A DNA stretch of 64,000 nucleotides from Anaerolineales bacterium (GCA_034430615.1 DAOUEJ010000102.1:3570-67569); one strand, 5' to 3'; positions 27,680 to 38,401 are shown, numbered from the stretch's first letter. Notes: a model not told the origin generated them from the letters alone. Numbers and translations are program-made.

Positions 27680-28702
27680 CTACCCGCGCGGCAAATCGAG
27701 AAACCAGGTTTCCAGCGCTAATCTCACGTTTGCATTTTGCAGGATGGCGGCACGCACACTCTCAGCCTCGCTTAAAACACGACCAATCGTTCCGACGTCG
27801 ATCCGCCTGACGATGTCCTCGAGATCCTGCTCTCGGTCGATATTCCGAGGCAGAACCCCCTCGGCTTGGTAACTTTTCAACATCGCATCGCGCCATAAGC
27901 TCGCCCATTGTTCGAGCGCATCGAGTGCTAGTACGCGCTGTGTTTCCGTGTCTTTCCCCTCCAGCATCGAATCCAGGTAAGCAAAGCGTGCTGCGAGCGA
28001 TCCAGGGATGAGCTCAACCATATCATCCAGCCACTGAGCCCTGCGGGATAATTGCTCCACGTCCGATCCTGCACCGATCGCCCACCCGGGTCGACCATCG
28101 GCCAGGCGGGTGATCAGGTTCGCGTCTTCATTCGGTAGGCCGCGCGCAAGTAGGGCCTGGCTGATCAACTCGTCGGAGACCTGGCGGAGAGGCAGCACCT
28201 CGCAGCGTGAAACGATCGTGGGCAACAAGGCTTCACCCGAGCGGGCGGTGAGTATGAGCACGACGCGGGATGCCGGTTCTTCGAGTGTTTTTAATAGAGC
28301 GTTCGCCGCATTGTCATTGGCCTCATGGAACCGCAAGCACAAGGCAACCCGCCATTCGCTTTCAAAAGGCATGAGCGCCAGCTGGCCCTGCAGCTCACGG
28401 ATCTGCTCGACTTTGATCATCGCTCCGGGCGCTTCCGATTCGATCAAATGTAAATCAGGAAAATCGCCTGCTTCGGTCAGTCGGCATGCGCGGCACTCAC
28501 CACAAAATTCCCCGGATTCGGTTGCTTTTGTGCAGAAGAGCGCCTGTGCAAATCGGATCCCAAGGGTGCGCTTGCCCAGTCCGTCCGCACCGGTGATCAG
28601 GTAGGCGTGTCTAACTTTCTGCCGGCTGATATGTCCCCGGAGCATGTTAACCGCCCATTGATGTCCGATCATCCGCCAATTCATCGGCATCATTGTACTC
28701 AC
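27680..28702 (-). CDS. holB: DNA polymerase III delta-prime subunit
   Basis: GHQWAVNMLRGHI...HAYLITGADGLGKRTL, CGECRACR zinc module, and Walker B-like VVLILT. Confidence 0.82.
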   Translation of the reverse strand: MSTMMPMNWRMIGHQWAVNMLRGHISRQKVRHAYLITGADGLGKRTLGIRFAQALFCTKATESGEFCGECRACRLTEAGDFPDLHLIESEAPGAMIKVEQIRELQGQLALMPFESEWRVALCLRFHEANDNAANALLKTLEEPASRVVLILTARSGEALLPTIVSRCEVLPLRQVSDELISQALLARGLPNEDANLITRLADGRPGWAIGAGSDVEQLSRRAQWLDDMVELIPGSLAARFAYLDSMLEGKDTETQRVLALDALEQWASLWRDAMLKSYQAEGVLPRNIDREQDLEDIVRRIDVGTIGRVLSEAESVRAAILQNANVRLALETWFLDLPRG

Positions 28703-28778
28703 TTGTCGGCAGCCTCAACAACCTGCCGGTGATATGCAAGCTTGACCCCGCTCTGGCATCTCCGGTATAACTTCAGCG

Positions 28779-29861
28779 ATGTCTAACGCGATGCCCACAT
28801 TTTCGATTGGCCCCATACCTGTCTACGGCGATTTAATCCTCGCACCGATGGACGGATATTCCGAACTCCCCTTCCGCTCGCTCTGCCGTGAGTACGGCTC
28901 GTCCGTGAGCTATACGGCATTTGTCAATGCCATCGACATCCTACAGGGGTCCGACTCCGCCTGGCGCTCGCTCCGCTACCTGGAAAATGAACGCCCAGTG
29001 ATCTTTCAGATTTATGACAGCGATGAGGACCGGCTCATACAGGCCGCGCTTGTGATCCGATCCCTTGAACCGGATGCGATCGATATCAACATGGGCTGCT
29101 CGGTTCGCAGCGTTTCGGGGCGCGGCGCTGGCGCCGGCTGGCTGCGGGAGCCTGATAAGATCGAACGCCTGCTGAGCAGGCTGGTGCGCGAGCTCGACCT
29201 GCCCGTCACCGCCAAGATCCGGCTCGGATGGGATGATGTGAATCGCAACTACCTAGAGGTCGCCCGGGCGATCGAGCATTCCGGCGCCTCACTCATTGCT
29301 GTACACGGAAGGACCCGTCAGCAGGGTTTCAGGGGCGAAGCCGACTGGGATGCAATCTCCGAAATCAAGGCAGCGATCAGGTTGCCTGTCATCGCCAATG
29401 GTGATGTACGTATAGTTGAGGATATCGAGCGCATCAAAGCACACACCTCCTGCGACGGGGTCATGCTCGGCCGGGCAGCCATGGGAAACCCATGGATCTT
29501 CAGCCGCCAGGCTCGTGCTGATGTATCCAGGTCGGACCTCACGGCGGCCATCCAACACCATCTGTCCCGAATGATCGAATTTCATGGACAGGTGGATGGA
29601 CTGCTCCGTTTCCGGAAACATCTCAAACGCTATCTCTTGCCCCAGAAGCTCTCTGTGCACGATCTCACCGCGATCCTGCGCAGCGAGAGCCTGCCGGTGC
29701 TTCTCCAGCAGCTTGAACAAGTTGGGCTTTGCCTGGATCTACACGCCCCCGATGCGTCCTTGATGGTAAACGGAGTCCCCTACTCTACCTACCCCCGCGT
29801 AGAGCAGCTCACAACTGCACTGACAACGAAGGCTGGGTATAATCGCGGCCGTAGAGAATGA
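28779..29861 (+). CDS. tRNA-dihydrouridine synthase
   Basis: LAPMDGYSELPFR, DINMGCS, AKIRLGWD, HGRTRQQ and ANGD Dus motifs. Confidence 0.88.
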   Translation: MSNAMPTFSIGPIPVYGDLILAPMDGYSELPFRSLCREYGSSVSYTAFVNAIDILQGSDSAWRSLRYLENERPVIFQIYDSDEDRLIQAALVIRSLEPDAIDINMGCSVRSVSGRGAGAGWLREPDKIERLLSRLVRELDLPVTAKIRLGWDDVNRNYLEVARAIEHSGASLIAVHGRTRQQGFRGEADWDAISEIKAAIRLPVIANGDVRIVEDIERIKAHTSCDGVMLGRAAMGNPWIFSRQARADVSRSDLTAAIQHHLSRMIEFHGQVDGLLRFRKHLKRYLLPQKLSVHDLTAILRSESLPVLLQQLEQVGLCLDLHAPDASLMVNGVPYSTYPRVEQLTTALTTKAGYNRGRRE

Positions 29862-30388
29862 GGAGAAACATCTTGGTACAGTCATTTCTTGAACGCTATC
29901 CGATCTCCAGTATCCGCCGTAATCATGGGCTCGAACATGCCACGATCCATCTCTTGAGCCAGCGCTTCCCAGATCGGACTTTTATCGGACGTTCGGACAT
30001 CGATGGTTTCACACTCTACGGCACCATCGAAACCGATCAATTGGCGGAATTTACTGACAAGGCTCTTGAACGCCTTCGTGGAGGGGAGCGCGCGCTAGCG
30101 ATCCATCCGAATTGTGGCACTAACCTCGTCACATCTGCACTGCTGGCCAGCAGCGCCACGCTGCTGGCATTTGTGGGGAGCGAAGGTGGCGGGTGGCGGC
30201 GCCGGCTGGAACGATTCCCACTAGCTGTGGCAAGTTCGATCCTGGCCTTACTCCTTGCCCAGCCACTAGGCAGGATAGCCCAAGAGAAACTCACTACGGA
30301 CGGAGATCCAGCTAACCTGCGCATTGTCTCAGTCAAACGGATTGAGAGGAAAGGGATGATTCTGCACCGAGTGAGAACCCGGTCCTGA
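29858..30388 (+). CDS. Hypothetical membrane protein
   Basis: 176 aa with ATGA overlap with dus. RRNHGLEHATIHLL and HPNCGTN motifs plus hydrophobic segments. No family is confidently recognised. Confidence 0.5.
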   Translation: MRRNILVQSFLERYPISSIRRNHGLEHATIHLLSQRFPDRTFIGRSDIDGFTLYGTIETDQLAEFTDKALERLRGGERALAIHPNCGTNLVTSALLASSATLLAFVGSEGGGWRRRLERFPLAVASSILALLLAQPLGRIAQEKLTTDGDPANLRIVSVKRIERKGMILHRVRTRS

Positions 30389-30389
30389 T

Positions 30390-31379
30390 ATGGTCGACAC
30401 TCCTCCTTCGCTCTACCTTTTGTATGGCGACGACTCATTTGCCATGGAAGCATTTATCGCCTCACTGAGCGAGAAGCTCGGTGATGCGTCGACGATTGCC
30501 ATGAATCGTCAGCGCTTCGATGGTGGCAGCTTAGATCTCCAAGAATTGCGTGGGGTCTGTTCTCAGATGCCCTTCCTGGCCGAACGCCGGTTGGTGATCG
30601 TTGATAATGCTCAAAACTTACCTAAGCAAAGCGAGTTTATGGAGGGAATGGAAGCGGTGCTTTCCTCGCTCCCGGCAAGCACCGCACTGCTCTGCATCGA
30701 GCAACTTTCACCTCCCCGCCGGGTACGTGATACCTGGCGTCGGACATGGTTGCGTGGCTGGGCAGAGGAGCATGAGACAACTAGTTATATCCGTTTCATG
30801 GGCAGTCCACGCGGCCCGGAGTTTGTTCAGTGGATCCTGAACCGCACGAGTGAACTCGAGGGTGAAATTGATAGGGATGCAGCGCAGTTGCTGGCAGACT
30901 GGGTTTCAGATGATCCCTACCTTGCAGACCACGAAATCCACAAGTTGCTGGATTATGTTGATCTGAAGCGTGAGATCCGTGTTGAGGACGTTGAACTCCT
31001 GACACCCTTTCGAGGACAGGGTGATATCTTTGAGTTCGTTGATGCGCTGGGCCAACGACAGCCGCGCCAAGCTCAGCTACAGCTTGCGCGCCTGCTGAAT
31101 GATTCGGATCCGCGCTATGTGTTCGCGATGATCATTCGCCAATTTCGGCTGATCATCCTGGCGCGGGAAGCCCTTGATCATGGGTCGGATCCCGGACAGG
31201 TTATCTCGCTGCCAGCGTTCCTTGTGAAGCGGCTTGCGGCACAAGCCAGGACATTTTCATCTTCTGATCTGGACCTTATCTACCACGATTTGCTACAGAC
31301 CGATCTCGGGGTGAAGACCAGCCAGATCGATCTCAACACTGCATTGGACCGTTTGGTGGGAGCCCTCGCAGCCGCCTGA
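30390..31379 (+). CDS. holA: DNA polymerase III delta subunit
   Basis: LYLLYGDDSFAMEAFI N-terminus, size and helical C-terminal domain typical of HolA. Confidence 0.8.
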   Translation: MVDTPPSLYLLYGDDSFAMEAFIASLSEKLGDASTIAMNRQRFDGGSLDLQELRGVCSQMPFLAERRLVIVDNAQNLPKQSEFMEGMEAVLSSLPASTALLCIEQLSPPRRVRDTWRRTWLRGWAEEHETTSYIRFMGSPRGPEFVQWILNRTSELEGEIDRDAAQLLADWVSDDPYLADHEIHKLLDYVDLKREIRVEDVELLTPFRGQGDIFEFVDALGQRQPRQAQLQLARLLNDSDPRYVFAMIIRQFRLIILAREALDHGSDPGQVISLPAFLVKRLAAQARTFSSSDLDLIYHDLLQTDLGVKTSQIDLNTALDRLVGALAAA

Positions 31380-31520
31380 AACCACTTGCTACCCAGCTTA
31401 TTATCCCGCGTTTAGAATCACCCAGGCTTGCCTCCCCTCAACCAGAAATTCCTGGCGCGGAACGGCCTGGGCCAACGCACTTTGCTATTGATCGGGCTGC
31501 TTCCTGCCCGTCTAGGCCGA

Positions 31521-31757
31521 TTACGTCTTTCCCTCATCCACACCAAGCCAGAAGTGTCCTGGAAGAACGGTGGGGCTCGAACTCAACTTCATCCCCTCTG
31601 GTTCAATGACCTCGTCACCGGTGAGTGTCTTGGGATGAACCACGCATACGTTTGGACGTGTGCCATATTTCCGGCTGTAGTATTCAGCCGCCTGCCCGAC
31701 CCGGGTTGACAGCGTACTGCCCCGATCATCGTCCAGCCACAACATGCCAACATTCAT
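31521..31757 (-). CDS. Hypothetical 78-aa protein, third gene of the SOS-box operon
   Basis: ATG overlaps the upstream stop (ATGA). MNVGMLWLDDDRGSTLSTRVGQAAEYYSRKYGTRPNVCVVHP... No family recognised. Confidence 0.5.
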   Translation of the reverse strand: MNVGMLWLDDDRGSTLSTRVGQAAEYYSRKYGTRPNVCVVHPKTLTGDEVIEPEGMKLSSSPTVLPGHFWLGVDEGKT

Positions 31758-32014
31758 CGCCTGCCTCCTGCCTGGCCCAAGATATGCTCGACGCGCCAGA
31801 TATCACCCCGCTCATCATGCGAAATCCGGCACTTAAGTCCCTGCACCGTCTGCAATTGATAGGTCTTTCCCTCGCTTACCCTCACACCAGTACCCCGCAT
31901 CCATTCAATCCGCCTCACCGCATATCTGCGGCCACGCCAGCTGAATTCAAGCGGGATGGCGTCCAACCCTTTACGGTGCACGCGAATTCGCTCACTTGTC
32001 TTGATCGTCCTCAT
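31754..32014 (-). CDS. Hypothetical 86-aa protein, second gene of the SOS-box operon
   Basis: GAGGTGA SD lies 7 nt before ATG 32014. MRTIKTSERIRVHRKGLDAIPLEFSWRGRRYAVRRIEWMR...DIWRVEHIL. No family confidently recognised. Confidence 0.5.
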   Translation of the reverse strand: MRTIKTSERIRVHRKGLDAIPLEFSWRGRRYAVRRIEWMRGTGVRVSEGKTYQLQTVQGLKCRISHDERGDIWRVEHILGQAGGRR

Positions 32015-32072
32015 TTCACACTCACCTCTTTCCAACCCTTCCCCACCGTCTACGAACCATAATTGACGCTAT

Positions 32073-33047
32073 CTACCGCTCACCGCGCCAGCCAGATTGC
32101 ACCATCCGAACAGCGGTATCCAGCTCGCGCAAACCCATCCAGGCCACATCCGCCAGAACAGTCTCCGGGCCTGACCGAAAACGAAATCTGCCCGTGCGTC
32201 CTTCCTGGCCTTCGCTCCAACCCACCCGCATCACGCCTCGCTCATCACCCGGATCCAGCGCATAGCGGCGTGCGCTGGCGATGAGGTGGACGCCCGCTTC
32301 CCGCCCGCGGACCAGGATCGGCGACAGCATCTCTTCCAGGGCCGAGCCGAATATCGCGTGCAACTCATCCAGCCCGTCGATGAAAAGCACCACATGGGGG
32401 CTTCGAATGCCGGTCAGCAAGCGCCGTTCAATCTCTTCCATCAGCCAGAGTATTAGATCCTCCGCAAAACCGGCCTCACTGGCGAGATCCGTCAGCGCAT
32501 GTGGAAGCGCCTCAAGCGGCGCCAGCTCTCGCCCACCCGGATCGATCCCCAGGAAGCTGACCTGCGCCGGACGGCTGGACAAACCGAGCGAGACAAGCAG
32601 CGTGCGCAAGAGTTCCGATTTTCCGCTACCCGCCGGAGCCTGGATCAGCACATGCCAGGTAGACTCGCGCGCAAGATCGAGCACCAACGGTTTACCATCG
32701 AGGCTCATGCCGACCAGGGCTGACAGCGACTGCAAGCGCGGCAAGGCCCGGATCAGCGGCAGCAAGCGCAAATCCGACGCGTGCTTGAGCGGCACCTCGA
32801 TCGCCAGCTCGCCGGCTTCGCGCACGACCCGCAGTTCCTCCACGCCGATCGCATGGGCGACGTCTTCCGCGAACTGGATGAATTCCAGCGGCTGCGCGCC
32901 GACCGCCGGGGTCAGGTAGTAGCGCACACGATCCTCGCGGATCACACCGCCAGCGACCCGCGCTGGCCGGGAAAGATGGGTCAACGCTGATTCGATCTGG
33001 TTTGCCTGGCGATTAAACGCGGCCTCTTGATAGAACGCCCTTTCCAT
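32073..33047 (-). CDS. Soluble FtsK/SpoIIIE-like P-loop ATPase (no TM region, no gamma domain)
   Basis: GGAGG lies 6 nt before ATG 33047. The N-terminal segment resembles the FtsK alpha domain (RVAGGVIREDRVRYYLTPAVGAQP...LAIEVPLK). Walker A is QAPAGSGKSELL. Also FLGIDPGGRELAPLEALPH, Walker B HVVLFIDGLDEL and GVHLIASARR. Confidence 0.7.
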   Translation of the reverse strand: MERAFYQEAAFNRQANQIESALTHLSRPARVAGGVIREDRVRYYLTPAVGAQPLEFIQFAEDVAHAIGVEELRVVREAGELAIEVPLKHASDLRLLPLIRALPRLQSLSALVGMSLDGKPLVLDLARESTWHVLIQAPAGSGKSELLRTLLVSLGLSSRPAQVSFLGIDPGGRELAPLEALPHALTDLASEAGFAEDLILWLMEEIERRLLTGIRSPHVVLFIDGLDELHAIFGSALEEMLSPILVRGREAGVHLIASARRYALDPGDERGVMRVGWSEGQEGRTGRFRFRSGPETVLADVAWMGLRELDTAVRMVQSGWRGER

Positions 33048-33072
33048 CAAACACCTCCATACCCGAGCCTAA

Positions 33073-33088
33073 TAGAACGGGTGTTCTA
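33073..33088. promoter_or_regulatory. LexA (Cheo/DinR-type) box 1, TAGAAC-N4-GTTCTA
   Basis: Perfect palindrome TAGAACGGGTGTTCTA immediately downstream of the -10 element of the minus-strand promoter. Confidence 0.62.
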
Positions 33089-33118
33089 ATATTACCCGAA
33101 CAATTGTTCGTATGTCAA
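33089..33118 (-). promoter_or_regulatory. Near-consensus sigma-70 promoter TTGACA-18 nt-TAATAT driving the FtsK-like operon
   Basis: The minus strand reads TCTTGACATACGAACAATTGTTCGGGTAATATTAGAAC. The -35 is at 33113-33118 and the -10 at 33089-33094 (complement). Confidence 0.6.
33097..33110. promoter_or_regulatory. LexA (Cheo/DinR-type) box 2, CGAAC-N4-GTTCG
   Basis: Perfect palindrome CGAACAATTGTTCG located inside the -35/-10 spacer. Confidence 0.65.
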
Positions 33119-33188
33119 GAGGTGATCCGGGTTTACATCAGACAGATTTGAGCAACCAGACAGCGCTTTATGCTACAATGCCGATGCT

Positions 33189-34070
33189 GTGTCAGAAATG
33201 CCCGAGCCTACGGATATCCGCCCCTCCCCCATTGCCGGAACCTGGTACCCCGGTGATCGAAAAATCCTCGCCGATTCGATCGATCGTTACCTCGAGAACG
33301 CCAGCGTAAGCGCACCGATCGAAGGCCAGATTATGGGCCTGATCGTGCCGCATGCCGGTCACCGGTATTCGGGAGCGGTGGCTGCACATGCATTCAAGCT
33401 CATCCGGGGCATGCAGCCAGAAACAGTTGTTATCCTCTCCCCGCTGCATGCGCTGTCACCAGGCAAGATCTTGACCAGCGGGCATGACGCCTTCGCCACC
33501 CCGCTCGGGGTGATCCCCATCAACCGCGCACTGCAGACCCGTTTTGAGGAGAACTTGGGGCGGGATTTCCAGATCAAAGTCGAGCAGGTCCGGCTGGACC
33601 AGGAACACGCTCTGGAGATCGAGCTGCCCTTCCTGCAGCGAGTGCTCCAGGGGCCGTTCCAACTGTTGGCTGTCATGCTGCGTGAACAGAGCGAGCGGAC
33701 CGCACGTGCGATCAGTGAGGTCCTGGCGCAGTTGCTAGAACCGGCGACCTCACTGATCATTGGTAGCTCGGATCTCTCCCACTTTTACCCCGAGCGGCAT
33801 GCGCTGGAGCTGGATCGCGAAATGATCCGCCGTATCGAGAGCTTCCAACCAGCCGAGGTAATAAGGGCGGAAGCAGAAGGGGTTGGATACGCCTGTGGTC
33901 ACGGCGCAATTGCGGCGGCAATGTGGACCGCCCGCGCGCTGGGAGCGGATCGGATCAAGGTCCTCGAGCATGCCACTTCGGCCAATGTCACCGGTGACAG
34001 CAGCTCCGTGGTCGGCTACGCCTCGGCCGCGATCTATCGTTCGGAGGAAGCGAGACAGATTGACGAGTAA
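33189..34070 (+). CDS. AmmeMemoRadiSam system protein B (MEMO1 family)
   Basis: RPSPIAGTWYPGD and LIVPHAGHRYSG motifs. GTG 33189 or ATG 33198 start. Confidence 0.82.
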   Translation: MSEMPEPTDIRPSPIAGTWYPGDRKILADSIDRYLENASVSAPIEGQIMGLIVPHAGHRYSGAVAAHAFKLIRGMQPETVVILSPLHALSPGKILTSGHDAFATPLGVIPINRALQTRFEENLGRDFQIKVEQVRLDQEHALEIELPFLQRVLQGPFQLLAVMLREQSERTARAISEVLAQLLEPATSLIIGSSDLSHFYPERHALELDREMIRRIESFQPAEVIRAEAEGVGYACGHGAIAAAMWTARALGADRIKVLEHATSANVTGDSSSVVGYASAAIYRSEEARQIDE

Positions 34071-34103
34071 GGGTTCGAACAACGCCAGGAACGGATCCGC
34101 TTG

Positions 34104-35453
34104 ATGGAAGCCAGCCTGACCGACAACCTGCTCCGGCTCTTGCTGGTCGTCATCCTTGTATTGGCCAACGGCTTCTTTGTGGCAGCCGAGTTTGCGCTCG
34201 TCAGCGTTCGCCGCACACGCGTCGCCGAACTTGAGGCCCAGGGAAATCCGCGCGCACGCTGGGTGTCGATTGCCATCCACAACCCAGATCGATTCATCGC
34301 CGCTACACAGCTCGGCATCACGCTGGCGAGTCTAGGGTTGGGATGGATCGGCGAACCCGCCCTGAGTAACTTGATCCAGCCCCTGGTCGATCTCTTCCCG
34401 GCATCCATCGAGACACAGCTTTCACACAGCATCTCGGCCGGTTTATCCTTTGCCATCATCACTTTCCTGCACGTAGTCGTAGGTGAATTGGCGCCAAAAT
34501 CCATTGCCCTTCAGAGCCCCGAACGCACCGCACTTGTCGTCGCCCAACCTACCGTCTGGACAGAATGGATTTTCAAACCCGCCATCTGGGTCCTGAACGG
34601 CGCGGGCAACGCGCTTCTCCGCCTGGCGGGTGTCGAGCCGGCCTCCGGCCACGAACTCGTGCACTCGGTCGAAGAACTCAAGATGCTCGTTCGCGCCAGC
34701 GCTGCGGGCGGTTTGGTTGAGGATGATGCCCGGGAGATGGTCACGGCTATCTTCGATTTTGGCGAGCTGCTGGTGCGCCAGGTGATGGTGCCGCGCACGG
34801 AGATGATCGCCGTGCGCGAGGACACCAGCATTGAGGAGATGCTCGAGCTGGCGGTCGATAACCCGTTTAGCAAGTTCCCGGTCTACGCCGAGAGCCAGGA
34901 TCAGATCTTGGGCGTTGTCCACCTGAAAGATGTGCTGCTCAGGATGGGCGGTGACCATCAGTCCCTTCACGCGAGCGACCTGATGCGCGAAGCGATCTTT
35001 ATTCCCGAAACTGCACATGTCAACACATTGCTCAGGCTCTTCCGAGCCAGCAGGCGGCATATCGCCATCGTGGTGGATGAATATGGAGGGACCGCGGGCA
35101 TCGTCACCCTCGACGATCTGCTGGAGGAGATCGTTGGCGAGGTCAGCGACCCATTTGATGGCGAACCCGATATCCAATCGCTCCCAGATGGGAGTATGCT
35201 GGTCGATGGGTTGACCCTGATCGAAGAGGTCAACGATCACTTCAACCTGAACCTGGTTGATCCGAACTACGATACGATCGCCGGGTATGTGCTCGGGCGA
35301 TTGGAGAGGTTAGCCCGGATTGGGGATGTGATCCTGGTCGAGGGCGCGCGCATTCAAGTTGAGGCCATGGACGGTTTCCGAGTAGCACGCGTATCGATCC
35401 ACCCACTACCCAAGCGCGGCACATCAAAGCCGGCCTCTTATACACCCGAGTAA
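34104..35453 (+). CDS. CNNM/CorC-type hemolysin-family protein (DUF21 plus CBS pair plus CorC_HlyC)
   Basis: N-terminal 4 TM with FFVAAEFALVSVRR. VMVPRTEM and GIVTLDDLLEEIVGE CBS/CorC motifs. Confidence 0.85.
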   Translation: MEASLTDNLLRLLLVVILVLANGFFVAAEFALVSVRRTRVAELEAQGNPRARWVSIAIHNPDRFIAATQLGITLASLGLGWIGEPALSNLIQPLVDLFPASIETQLSHSISAGLSFAIITFLHVVVGELAPKSIALQSPERTALVVAQPTVWTEWIFKPAIWVLNGAGNALLRLAGVEPASGHELVHSVEELKMLVRASAAGGLVEDDAREMVTAIFDFGELLVRQVMVPRTEMIAVREDTSIEEMLELAVDNPFSKFPVYAESQDQILGVVHLKDVLLRMGGDHQSLHASDLMREAIFIPETAHVNTLLRLFRASRRHIAIVVDEYGGTAGIVTLDDLLEEIVGEVSDPFDGEPDIQSLPDGSMLVDGLTLIEEVNDHFNLNLVDPNYDTIAGYVLGRLERLARIGDVILVEGARIQVEAMDGFRVARVSIHPLPKRGTSKPASYTPE

Positions 35454-35457
35454 AGCC

Positions 35458-37956
35458 TTGCATAGGTTTGCTGAGGTTGCGATCAACCTCCCGCAGGTGC
35501 GCGGCACCTTCGACTATCACCTGCCTCCGCATTTGCGCGAGCGAATTGCCCTCGGTCATCTCGTGACCGTCCCCTTCGGCTCACAGCGCACCCAGGGCGT
35601 TGTCGTCCAGCTTCCCGATTCACCGGCAGTCTCCGAGACCAAGGCCATCGAAGCGCTCGTTGACCCCATTCCTGTCCTGACACGCACGCAGATCGAACTC
35701 GCCAGTTGGATCGCAGACACCTACCATGCCGGATTGATCGATGCGCTCACCCTGATGCTTCCCCCGGGGCTCAGCCAGCAGGCCGATTCGGTCATTCGCC
35801 TGGTCGATCCCCAAGGTCACCTTGAAAATGAACTGCAGCAGAAAATCGTCCGCCTGTTGGATAAACGCGGCGATCTGCGCTCCCGCCAGCTCGCCCGGGC
35901 CTTCCCCCGTCAACCATGGAAATCAGCCGTTCAGTCACTGATCAGGGATGGCATTCTCGAGCGTGAATCCGTGCTCGATCCGCCTCAAGTCCGTCCTAAA
36001 AATGTGCGTAACGCCCGCCTGCTTACTACTCCTGCGCAGGCGCGCGAGCGCGTCGCGTCTATTGGCAACCAGGGAAGCCAGGCGGATGTCCGGCGTCGGG
36101 CGATCATCGAAACCCTGATCGAGGAGGGCGAGGCGCTCGAGGTGTCCTGGCTCTATGCAGAACACGGCGGCTCGCTGGCCGATTTGAGGAAATTGGAGGC
36201 AGAGGAGCTGATCGCGTTGAGCGAATCGGAGGTCTGGCGCGACCCGCTCGAGGAACTTGAGTTTGTCCCTGTGCAACCACCCGTGCTGACTGCCGATCAG
36301 CAGGCTGTCTGGGATCCATTATGCAAAGCAGTGCAGGCAGGGTCACACAGTGCTTTTCTGCTCCACGGCATCACCGGTTCAGGGAAGACCGAGCTCTACT
36401 TGCGAGCCGTTGCCGAGACCCTCGCCACCGGACGAACGGCAATCGTGCTGGTACCCGAGATCGCCCTCACCCCGCAGACTGTGCGCAGGTTCCTGGCGCG
36501 CTTCCCCGGACAGGTTGGTTTGATTCATTCCGAACTCTCAGCCGGTGAGCGCTTCGACACCTGGCGCCGCTGCCGATCCGGCGATCTTCAGCTCGTCGTG
36601 GGCCCACGCAGTGCGCTCTTCACACCCTTGCCCGACCTCGGCTTGATCGTACTCGATGAGTCGCACGATGAATCGTACAAGGAACAGGAACGATCGCCGC
36701 GCTACCATGCCCGTGACACTGCCCAGGCCTATGCCCGCATGCTCGGTGCGACACTGATCCTGGGCAGTGCGACACCCGACGTCACCACCACCTTCCGCGC
36801 CGAGCACGACCAACTAGTGAGGCTGGAGCTACCCCGGCGCATCCTTGGGCATAGATCCCGGCTGGAGGGACAAGCCGCACGGCTCGGGGTCACCGATCGC
36901 TACGAAGAAGCCGGTGGCGAGGCACGCTCGATCTCCCTCCCACCGGTACGGATCGTCGACATGCGCCTCGAACTCAAAGCCGGGAACCGCTCTATCTTCA
37001 GCCGCCCGTTAACCCACGCGCTGGGTGAGGTGCTCGAGGCTAACGAGCAGGCAATCCTCTTTCTGAACCGCCGCGGGGCTGAGACCTACATCTTCTGTCG
37101 CGACTGCGGCTGGGTTGCCACTTGTCCGCGCTGCGACCGCAGCCTGACAATGCATCACAACCCCGTGCGGCTGGTGTGTCACCAATGCGGGTACAGTAGC
37201 CCTTCGCCTTCGGCGTGCCCCGAGTGCGGGGGCGAACGTGTGCGTCATTTCGGCGCGGGCACACAACGCATCCAGGCTGAGATCGAACGCCAGTTCCCCG
37301 CTGCCCGCACGCTGCGCTGGGATCACGATGCGACGCGCGCCAAAGGCTCGCACGATGTCATCCTGGCCCACTTCGCCGCGCACCGCGCCGACATCCTGAT
37401 CGGCACGCAGATGCTGGCCAAGGGCCTCGATATCCCGCTCGTCACGCTGGTGGGCGTGGTCTCAGCCGATGTCGGCCTTAACCTGCCCGATTACCGGGCG
37501 GGTGAGAGAACCTTCCAGCTGTTGACCCAGGTCGCCGGACGGGCCGGGCGCGGTCTGCTCGGCGGGCGGGTGATCCTGCAGACCTACCAGCCGGATCACT
37601 ACGCAGTACAGGCTGCATCCAGGCACGATTACCGGGAGTTCTACGAACGAGAACTGGAGTTCCGCAGACAGCTCTCCTATCCCCCTTTCAAGCGCCTGGT
37701 TCGCTTCCTTTACCGGGCGACATCGTCTGCGAGAGCCGAACGCGCAGCTGGTCGCCTGGTGCAAACTTTGAGAGCGAAGGCGACCGAGTCTGGCGAGAAG
37801 CTGGACCTGATCGGGCCGGCGCCGTGTTACTTTGAGCGAGTACGCGGTCGCTACCGCTGGCATGTGATCCTGCGCGCCTCCGATCCTGCGCGTTGGATCC
37901 CGGATCCGCTGCCCGAGGGCTGGGCTGTGGATATCGACCCGGTAAGCTTGCTCTAA
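35458..37956 (+). CDS. priA: Primosomal protein N' (replication restart helicase PriA)
   Basis: GITGSGKTE Walker A, DESHD (DExH), Cys4 zinc motifs CRDCGWVATCPRCD...CHQCGY...CPECGG, and GTQMLAKGLD. Confidence 0.9.
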   Translation: MHRFAEVAINLPQVRGTFDYHLPPHLRERIALGHLVTVPFGSQRTQGVVVQLPDSPAVSETKAIEALVDPIPVLTRTQIELASWIADTYHAGLIDALTLMLPPGLSQQADSVIRLVDPQGHLENELQQKIVRLLDKRGDLRSRQLARAFPRQPWKSAVQSLIRDGILERESVLDPPQVRPKNVRNARLLTTPAQARERVASIGNQGSQADVRRRAIIETLIEEGEALEVSWLYAEHGGSLADLRKLEAEELIALSESEVWRDPLEELEFVPVQPPVLTADQQAVWDPLCKAVQAGSHSAFLLHGITGSGKTELYLRAVAETLATGRTAIVLVPEIALTPQTVRRFLARFPGQVGLIHSELSAGERFDTWRRCRSGDLQLVVGPRSALFTPLPDLGLIVLDESHDESYKEQERSPRYHARDTAQAYARMLGATLILGSATPDVTTTFRAEHDQLVRLELPRRILGHRSRLEGQAARLGVTDRYEEAGGEARSISLPPVRIVDMRLELKAGNRSIFSRPLTHALGEVLEANEQAILFLNRRGAETYIFCRDCGWVATCPRCDRSLTMHHNPVRLVCHQCGYSSPSPSACPECGGERVRHFGAGTQRIQAEIERQFPAARTLRWDHDATRAKGSHDVILAHFAAHRADILIGTQMLAKGLDIPLVTLVGVVSADVGLNLPDYRAGERTFQLLTQVAGRAGRGLLGGRVILQTYQPDHYAVQAASRHDYREFYERELEFRRQLSYPPFKRLVRFLYRATSSARAERAAGRLVQTLRAKATESGEKLDLIGPAPCYFERVRGRYRWHVILRASDPARWIPDPLPEGWAVDIDPVSLL

Positions 37957-37975
37957 CCCCGACAAGAAGAGTGAA

Positions 37976-38401
37976 GTGAATAGGACCATGCAATCGGTTC
38001 GCGAATTTCTCGAACAGCATCTCCAGGGGATCTTCGAGAACGACGTTGCCGCATACCGTGTCAGTACAGTTCCCGATCTGACGCTCTATGAATGGTATGT
38101 CACACCGCAGCGCATTGAAGGTCTTCCATTCCATGAATTCATGCTCGAGGAGACCGGCCGCGAGGATAGCCCCGGCATAGCGCTTGATCCGCAGGGCGAG
38201 GCTGGCCAGGCAGGGAGCTATTCGCGCCAGAGGTTTGATCTGGCAAATTATCGCGAACAGCGCTATGGCGACACTGCGATCTGCACCTAAACCCTGCTCA
38301 TTTCCCGAAGTTCATACACGGGCGTGAACGTCGTCAGCGCTAATGAGACACGCATCCTGGTCGCAATCGCTGGTGAATGGCGCGTGGTACATGTCCATTA
38401 A
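37976..38401 (+). pseudogene. NTF2-like (SnoaL/DUF4440-type) gene interrupted by an in-frame TAA at 38288-38290
   Basis: The 104-aa ORF ends ...YGDTAICT*. The same frame continues TLLISRSSYTGVNVVSANETRILVAIAGEWRVVHVH* (stop 38399-38401). Combined length is about 141 aa. The C-terminal GxWxVVHxH is typical of the family. Confidence 0.55.

Follow-up and report, generated by a model that had tools for sequence, protein, structure and literature searches.

A 64,000-nucleotide stretch of DNA from an Anaerolineales bacterium (GCA_034430615.1 DAOUEJ010000102.1:3570-67569; referred to below as the window) contains, on its minus strand, a three-gene operon preceded by a near-consensus promoter with two LexA-type operators. 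The genes encode a P-loop NTPase of the FtsK/EccC family (P1), a basic protein of the DUF6504 family (P2) and a small alpha/beta protein (P3). The same promoter block was found in every locus whose contig extends to the start of P1. On balance, we favour the view that the operon is an SOS unit, repressed by LexA and conserved across the class Anaerolineae, whose products act on damaged DNA or stalled forks. The regulatory half of this view, repression by LexA within the SOS response, is very probable from the sequence comparisons given below. The functional half, a role in damage tolerance or in fork or chromosome processing, is put forward tentatively and from context, and we would not be surprised to see it replaced. 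The regulation would then be that of a classical SOS operon, and the effectors would be new and uncharacterised. An earlier note on the window had proposed an SOS-type operon controlled by LexA boxes. This proposal is supported by a phylogenetic footprint of 27 promoters and by an outgroup devoid of boxes; motif identity points to LexA as the binding protein.

The promoter and its conservation in Anaerolineae

The elements of the operon are listed in Table 1. The promoter, both palindromes, the GGAGG and the ATG described in the earlier note were all found at their places on the minus strand. In a consensus scan of this strand of the region, TTGACA-18-TAATAT (33118-33089) alone stood out as a strong sigma-70-type site, with 10 matches out of 12. 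No intrinsic terminator was found 3' of P3, and neither an Rfam family nor a tRNA was found within the window.

Table 1. Elements of the operon in the window and loci elsewhere in which a LexA-type box precedes a DUF6504 gene
Feature	Position	Strand	Description
-35 hexamer TTGACA	33113-33118	minus	sequence reading and promoter scan
LexA-type operator 1, CGAACAATTGTTCG	33097-33110		perfect GAAC-N4-GTTC palindrome within the 18-nt -35/-10 spacer
-10 hexamer TAATAT	33089-33094	minus	sequence reading and promoter scan
LexA-type operator 2, TAGAACACCCGTTCTA	33073-33088		perfect GAAC-N4-GTTC palindrome; adjoins the -10 and spans the predicted transcription start
Shine-Dalgarno GGAGG	33054-33058	minus	6 nt 5' of the P1 ATG (33047)
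P1, 324 aa	32073-33047	minus	FtsK/EccC-family P-loop NTPase
P2, 86 aa	31754-32014	minus	DUF6504-family basic protein, all-beta
P3, 78 aa	31521-31757	minus	alpha/beta protein; start overlaps the P2 stop (ATGA)
L125	800-1562		box TCGAACATATGTTCGA directly after a TTGACA-17-TACAGT promoter; DUF6504, then N-terminus of a Pol III alpha-family polymerase
L127	4234-6057		box TCGAACAGATGTTCGA ~100 nt 5' of DUF6504; SAV_6107-type HEPN gene, then N-terminus of a Pol III alpha-family polymerase
L132, Nonomuraea gerenzanensis NZ_LT559118	6937-10935		sole GAAC-N4-GTTC in 14 kb, ~60 nt 5' of a DUF6504 gene (6e-17)

The motif GAAC-N4-GTTC occurs four times in the window, with 0.94 occurrences expected. Scored with a weight matrix built from the other loci only, operator 2 reached 22.0 bits and operator 1 reached 17.1 bits. 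The rest of the window stayed at or below 11.8 bits, and the mean maximum of shuffled sequence was 12.1 bits. The two remaining matches, inside priA (37285-37296 and 37651-37662), scored about 7 bits. As this lies below the shuffle maximum, they are chance occurrences, as the earlier note had suspected. The same scan gave no further SOS promoter above noise within the window.

Loci for comparison were assembled from species-representative genomes (L001, L002), contigs encoding diverse family members (L081-L087) and a metagenome scan that used the DUF6504 motif as its seed (L088-L130). A genome scan with the P1 alignment was dominated by generic actinobacterial FtsK/EccC genes; its only orthologues were L001 and L002, and L003-L080 were not used save L018. 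The conserved block reads TTGAC(A/G), 3 nt, box 1, 3 nt, a TAnnAT-type -10, 0-9 nt and box 2. Automated extraction yielded 27 distinct orthologous promoters holding both boxes in register, and two more (L101, L131) were recognised by eye. These promoters come from Anaerolineae genomes and metagenomes in which the identity of P1 goes down to about 37% or P1 is detectable by profile only. The -35 is TTGACA in 23 of the 27 and TTGACG in 4. The core of box 1 is perfect in 22 promoters and that of box 2 in 20, with a single mismatch in the remainder; imperfect boxes are one base off, always by a change of GAAC to GCAC or of GTTC to GTGC. About 24-27 of the 27 promoters keep the TA...TA flanks of box 2. 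From centre to centre the boxes are 21-30 bp apart (mode 22, about two helical turns; 23 bp in the window). GGAGG or GGAGGT precedes the P1 start in the orthologues, and the intergenic DNA around the block diverges among loci. Because the same design recurs in 27 distinct promoters while their flanks diverge, we regard the double-box design as beyond chance.

The boxes also follow the genes. In 416 kb of collected loci, 54 of the 59 perfect GAAC-N4-GTTC sites lie within P1 promoters, and no boxes are present in the FtsK-like outgroup (P0069, L087), which is non-syntenic and canonical in its motifs. Brevefilum fermentans (L131) carries TTGACA-tc-GAACAAAAGTTC-tg-TATAAT-TAGAACAAACGTTC ahead of P1 and then P3, in a different genomic neighbourhood; its P1 (L131:5151-5984) was recognised only by profile comparison (hhalign 96.5%). 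Since the outgroup lacks the boxes and Brevefilum keeps both the promoter and P1-P3 elsewhere, promoter and genes are inherited, and now and then moved, as one unit. One clade (L096, L099, L101, L102, L103, L113, L120, L121) shows a slightly degenerate box 1 (GCAC...GTTC) together with a shorter P1.

Dual or multiple LexA boxes are known from lexA, recN and the colicin genes of E. coli and from the lexA/yneA region of B. subtilis, and a two-operator design is typical of SOS genes that are harmful when leaky. LexA of Dehalococcoides (Chloroflexi) is reportedly another user of GAAC-N4-GTTC. In Bacillus and Mycobacterium this motif is an established LexA site (PMC3323433). The operon shares this operator core with Gram-positive-type SOS genes that carry multiple LexA (DinR/Cheo) boxes (PMC3323433), and its operators overlap the core promoter, which would give repression by occlusion. 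The repressor-occlusion geometry proposed in the earlier note is indeed what was found, with box 1 inside the spacer and box 2 adjoining the -10 over the predicted +1. Since the two operators are about two helical turns apart, repression by LexA is predicted to be tight. Unlike in the known multi-box SOS genes, a spacer-filling box and a -10-adjoining box are preserved here as a block throughout the class, LexA binding being predicted.

The palindromes might belong to a repressor other than LexA, and the operon would then respond to something else than DNA damage. For the Bacillus consensus, C...G flanks are usually given, and the strongly conserved TA...TA flanks of box 2 are slightly different from these. 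The core of the palindromes, on the other hand, is exactly the Gram-positive LexA motif (PMC3323433), and no regulator gene was found in the operon or conserved beside it in the compared loci. The same motif moreover precedes DUF6504 and DnaE2-like polymerase genes in Actinomycetota, where GAAC-N4-GTTC is the LexA site. We consider another repressor quite improbable.

A second motif was noticed upstream of the promoter in most related loci. It reads ATTGTAGCA(T/C)A and is represented in the window by ATTGTAGCATA at ~33168-33178 (minus reading), about 50-60 nt upstream of the P1 -35; between loci, its distance to this -35 ranges from ~25 nt to far more than 100 nt. Read in reverse complement, T(A/G)TGCTACAAT, the motif resembles an extended -10 of the divergent gene, which is Memo-like and starts at 33189 or 33198. 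As this extended -10-like motif lies only ~10-20 nt 5' of the Memo-like start codon, it suggests that the Memo-CNNM-priA transcript is leaderless or nearly so.

The proteins encoded by the operon

The three open reading frames (ORFs) have the sizes, the coordinates, the ATGA overlap and the Walker motifs that the earlier note had described, and none of the products has a transmembrane (TM)-grade hydrophobic segment. P1 matched PF01580 (FtsK_SpoIIIE) at 8.7e-20, with 71.5 bits against a cutoff of 24, over profile positions 18-120 of 221 only, and its N-terminus gave a weak FtsK_alpha match in Pfam. No TM segment was seen in P1 (no 19-residue hydropathy window above 1.39), Pfam detected no FtsK gamma domain, and the protein ends ~50 residues past the beta domain; the first description of P1 as a soluble FtsK/SpoIIIE-like protein with neither TM nor gamma domain therefore holds. 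In the alignment to the FtsK structures of P. aeruginosa and E. coli, P1 matches the alpha domain and the initial two thirds of the RecA-like beta domain, and the aligned stretch stops just past the position of TQRP. Some clades' P1 are also without the alpha-like N-terminus, namely the clade with the degenerate box 1 and Brevefilum (L131). About 70 full-length homologues of ~330 aa were found, mostly in Anaerolineales/Anaerolineae bins.

P1 of the window has the Walker A motif APAGSGKS and the Walker B motif LFIDGLDE. Among 68 family members the Walker A Lys is kept in 66, the Walker A Ser/Thr in all 68 and the Walker B Asp in 65. The residue after this Asp, which is the catalytic Glu in FtsK, is Asp in 43 members, Gly in 12 (the window included), Glu in 8 and another residue in 5. 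The Gly that had been pointed out in the window is thus present, as one state of a degenerate position. TQRP is replaced by variable residues, and the segment that follows is shortened compared with the canonical outgroup P0069. Because Walker A is kept and the catalytic Glu and TQRP are lost, P1 is probably no processive pump but a nucleoside triphosphate (NTP)-dependent switch or scaffold that acts on DNA. Selection appears to have kept nucleotide binding and not the hydrolysis machinery of a processive hexameric pump.

Compared with FtsK/SpoIIIE, P1 shares the alpha domain and most of the beta domain and lacks the N-terminal membrane domain, the linker and the gamma domain that reads KOPS (FtsK-orienting polar sequences); it has 324 aa where FtsK has >750. 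It passes the PF01580 threshold, and the complete catalytic motif set, the membrane anchor and the gamma domain of the translocases are missing from it. It stands close to the EccC/EssC ATPases of type VII secretion systems (T7SS), above all to their degenerate D2/D3 domains. The best PDB match of the P1 family profile is the EccC structure 4nh0 (2e-48), ahead of the FtsK motor structures 2ius (2e-35) and 2iuu (about 1e-35), and the best NCBIfam match is T7SS_EccC_b at 1e-16. In its P-loop region, P1 resembles EccC-type domains no less than it resembles chromosomal FtsK. In one Anaerolineae metagenome-assembled genome (L018:4651-8772) we noticed a 1,373-aa EccC/EssC-like triple-ATPase with N-terminal TM segments, and around the P-loop (GSGKSELLRT..LAL) it is almost the same as P1. 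This near identity hints at an origin of P1 in the EccC branch of the FtsK family. Degenerate EccC ATPase domains bind small partner proteins. Yet P1 is a single ATPase domain with no TM segment, whereas EccC-type proteins have two or three tandem domains behind TM segments. No WXG100 or other T7SS genes were found near P1, whose neighbours are Memo, CNNM, priA, holA, DUF6391 and Dus. P2 (beta) and P3 (alpha/beta), as modelled, are also no helical hairpins.

Of the two small proteins that the earlier note did not recognise, P2 could be assigned to a named family and P3 stays in an unnamed one. The P2 of the window scored 22.6 bits with DUF6504 (PF20114), just under the cutoff of 24.2. All eight orthologues compared matched this profile at E<=0.01 (best 2.5e-8), with precomputed matches also for L083 and L084, and we accept P2 as a DUF6504 member at the level of the orthologous group. 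P2 has an invariant motif, P-x-E-F-(S/T)-W-R-G-R-R. P2 carries a net charge of +11, and its AlphaFold2 model (predicted local distance difference test, pLDDT, 80.5) is all-beta with six strands. It is a probable nucleic-acid binder. Foldseek with the P2 model gave nothing against PDB at E<=0.001, and a tblastn search of plasmids with the window P2 returned noise only.

P3 was present in every locus whose contig extends far enough. An exhaustive profile search gathered 2,467 clusters at 50% identity for E<=1e-3, and 1,142 for E<=1e-10; almost all of the 150 clusters listed have lengths of 74-100 aa. Where a source name is given, as in Brevefilum fermentans, it reads "hypothetical protein." No Pfam model of the family exists, and its longer members carry no Pfam domains and so give no sign of fusions. 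Residues G4, W7 and C38 are invariant and H-F-W-x-G is nearly so. The AlphaFold2 model (pLDDT 88.8, predicted template modelling score 0.79) has a beta-alpha-beta-beta-beta topology. In Foldseek searches of PDB and BFVD it matched nothing at E<=0.001; the partial matches seen in the fold searches of the two small proteins (HK97-capsid, YojF) were not meaningful. A DinI-like identity, considered for the beta-alpha-beta start and the SOS context, was supported by neither Pfam nor Foldseek. The P3 family is a candidate for a new family definition. Sequence searches of PDB with P2 and P3 found nothing, and neither protein had a match in PADLOC, PHROGs or NCBIfam.

A census of operon architectures was made by hidden Markov model searches of six-frame translations with ORF extraction, and covered 39 loci with both P1 and P3, some of them duplicate contigs. 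The order P1-P2-P3 was found in 23 loci. An additional gene, X, stood directly after P1 in P1-X-P2-P3 (13 loci) and P1-X-P3 (2 loci, the X of L002 being a doubtful 56-aa ORF), and one locus had P1-gap-P3. Brevefilum (L131) has P1-P3. The trio of the earlier note does recur across Anaerolineae, syntenic in most loci, but P2 is not universal and X can be added; the invariant core is rather the promoter, P1 and P3. L081 (ENA ERZ25039603 contig_14870, 867 kb), the long contig of the closest relative, has many genes split by frameshifts (P1, P3, priA, CNNM, holA), which look like indel errors of long-read assembly rather than pseudogenes.

Gene X, absent from the window and found in 13-15 of the 39 loci, encodes a protein of 105-145 aa with one or two TM helices. 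In the examples L082:5989-6312, L083:5981-6424, L091:5558-6001 and L111:5624-6001, TR(I/N)E is conserved past the last helix. Its product is a candidate SOS-induced membrane protein, and it enters into the main rival to the view that we favour. In that rival the operon would be an SOS-induced checkpoint of division or segregation: P1, sometimes with X, would serve as a decoy or inhibitor of FtsK or the divisome and delay septum closure over damaged, unsegregated chromosomes in filamentous bacteria. X resembles the LexA-controlled small membrane division inhibitors YneA, SosA, SidA/DidA and ChiZ in being small, TM-bearing and placed behind the same LexA-type promoter, and the presence of two operators points to a product whose leakage would do harm. 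A homologue of the FtsK alpha/beta motor without catalytic Glu, TQRP, TM anchor or gamma also has the profile of a dominant-negative paralogue. A precedent for the theme exists, as the canonical ftsK of E. coli is SOS-inducible, that is, damage-inducible, through the dinH promoter (PMC4080785). Against the checkpoint, X is missing from the window and from most loci, no sequence relation of X to the known inhibitors was detected by inspection alone, and P1, P2 and P3 are all soluble, the core of P1 and P3 being cytoplasmic. In its P-loop region, P1 resembles EccC-type ATPase domains as much as it resembles FtsK, and the link between DUF6504 and a DnaE2-like polymerase, described below, would be left unexplained. 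We hold the checkpoint to be rather unlikely.

DUF6504 loci, genomic context and proposed role

The proposal that the operon serves damage tolerance comes in part from DUF6504 genes outside Anaerolineae. In the metagenome scan, strong DUF6504 matches all lay between a P1 and a P3. Two of the five perfect GAAC-N4-GTTC sites outside P1 promoters stand directly upstream of distant DUF6504 genes (E ~1e-13), on the high-GC contigs L125 and L127, and a third such locus was found in Nonomuraea gerenzanensis (L132; Table 1). There the DUF6504 gene overlaps the start of a 1,220-aa polymerase, whose best model was "error-prone DNA polymerase" (DnaE2; 634 bits, against 602 for DnaE1) and which passes the superfamily cutoff only. 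No ImuA or ImuB was found at the Nonomuraea locus, the neighbours being unrelated. The boxes have the form TCGAAC-N4-GTTCGA or AGAAC-N4-GTTCG, and the polymerase is a divergent Pol III alpha paralogue of DnaE2-like type. DUF6504 may, at these loci, be an undescribed accessory gene of an SOS polymerase in Actinomycetota, L125 and L127 being known only as high-GC contigs. The association of DUF6504, LexA box and polymerase is real but not universal. A supposed identity of DUF6504 with a C-terminal domain of ImuB, or its association with ImuA'/ImuB, was rejected, as neither ImuB nor ImuA stood beside any DUF6504 gene examined and adjacency to a DnaE2-like gene was seen instead.

Two further DUF6504 proteins were noted in passing. 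L130 (37-606) encodes a fusion in which the "competence/damage-inducible" domain from the C-terminal part of CinA (PF02464, 7e-31) is followed by a DUF6504-like C-terminus. On a plasmid of Thermaerobacter sp. FW80 (L133:6950-11124), a "DUF6504 family protein" with no LexA box is convergent to a 1,119-aa "P-loop NTPase fold protein" and surrounded by toxin-antitoxin and transposase genes, which again places DUF6504 next to a P-loop NTPase, here in a mobile context.

In most loci the operon lies between Memo, CNNM-CBS and priA on the divergent side and holA, DUF6391, Dus and holB on the convergent side. The order holB, Dus, DUF6391, holA, operon, Memo, CNNM/CBS-CorC, priA was read in the window (27680-38000) and in L082-L086. 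Three replication genes, holB, holA and priA, thus flank the operon, and the same core-genome site is occupied across P1 identities of 37-86%. A role in damage tolerance or at forks is favoured because the LexA-boxed DUF6504 adjoins a DnaE2-like polymerase and because the operon is flanked by priA, holA and holB.

This context bears on an idea of the earlier note, that of a remnant of some mobile element or defence system that has been domesticated. Possible sources, since brought under LexA control, would be FtsK-like coupling proteins of conjugation, packaging ATPases of phages, or abortive or toxin modules triggered by SOS. Conjugative elements and phages often carry ATPases of the FtsK type, P1 gave weak matches to PADLOC mad8 (1.5e-10) and SspH (3.8e-10) and to PHROG "FtsK/SpoIIIE-like," and the different neighbourhood of the Brevefilum module shows that it is able to move. 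The PADLOC and PHROG matches, however, cover the generic FtsK ATPase domain only, and P1 alone among the three proteins matches PADLOC, with no partner genes or full gene complement of those systems present. The core-genome site is stable over the range of P1 identities just given, and no integrase, relaxase, repeat, tRNA or Rfam element was found near the locus. P3 has no significant viral fold relative, and P2 and P3 have no viral sequence matches. The 2,467 uniformly small clusters of the P3 family resemble vertical inheritance in a diverse class. A remnant of this kind now seems most improbable.

The favoured mechanism would run as follows. Two LexA dimers would occupy the two GAAC-N4-GTTC operators, one in the spacer and one over the transcription start, and would occlude RNA polymerase, giving tight repression. 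Upon DNA damage, RecA-stimulated self-cleavage of LexA would free the near-consensus promoter, and the three proteins, translationally coupled as they are, would be produced together. The products would assemble on damaged chromosomes or stalled replication forks, P1 as a nucleotide-dependent scaffold, the basic P2 as a nucleic-acid-binding adaptor and P3 as an obligatory partner. Induction of the operon by damage and a complex of P1, P2 and P3 are thus predicted parts of this view.

Several observations weigh against this view. The cognate LexA motif of Anaerolineae is assumed; neither a recA nor a lexA gene occurs in the window or in any collected locus. The proposed function draws on guilt by association with the three DUF6504-polymerase loci, which belong to another phylum, and the link is limited to these. 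Other DUF6504 genes (L117, L119, L122, L128 and the Thermaerobacter plasmid) have no LexA box and stand in unrelated contexts. P2 is found in most loci and is absent from L001, L002, L085 and L131, where DUF6504 would be dispensable. Neither dnaE2 nor imuB was found near the Anaerolineae operon. Two P1 family members without the Walker A Lys retain the operon, so that nucleotide binding by P1 may be inessential. Fold searches of PDB with both P2 and P3, and for P3 of viral models as well, gave no structural relatives that could anchor a mechanism.

A described parallel is the ImuA-ImuB-DnaE2 system, a LexA-controlled cassette with a RecA-fold ATPase-like protein of doubtful catalysis and small or inactive accessories (bioRxiv 10.1101/2020.12.14.422803). 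The likeness is one of analogy, with one domain family in common (DUF6504, LexA-boxed upstream of DnaE2-like genes elsewhere), and not of membership: no Y-family ImuB or DnaE2 lies in or beside any Anaerolineae operon, and P1 matches FtsK/EccC models, not RecA or ImuA. A bolder extension would see a cross-phylum SOS damage-tolerance system, in which DUF6504 works with a DnaE2-like polymerase in Actinomycetota and with an ImuA-like degenerate P1 and P3 in Anaerolineae, in a fork-associated or "mutasome-like" complex. We mention this extension as speculation, with little expectation that it will hold.

Implications for the SOS response of Anaerolineae

The products of the operon, unlike those of known SOS genes, match no described SOS function. 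The earlier note had found no canonical SOS gene in it, and the comparisons agree, the module fitting no translocase, T7SS, mutasome, division-inhibitor or PADLOC system. To our knowledge, the SOS regulon of the Chloroflexota is essentially uncharted, and a literature search gave nothing on either LexA in Anaerolineae or DUF6504. Sediments and anaerobic digesters have Anaerolineae among their most abundant bacteria. The operon is apparently class-wide, its operator architecture is kept more strictly than the sequences of the proteins that it controls, and it encodes three protein families without assigned function. P1 may illustrate how, in nature, an FtsK/EccC ATPase domain has become a switch that is probably no motor. 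Should the regulation be confirmed, the operon would provide a new effector module for the SOS response. It would also give DUF6504 its first functional context, as a family that is LexA-boxed in two phyla and that lies, in Actinomycetota, upstream of an error-prone-type polymerase.

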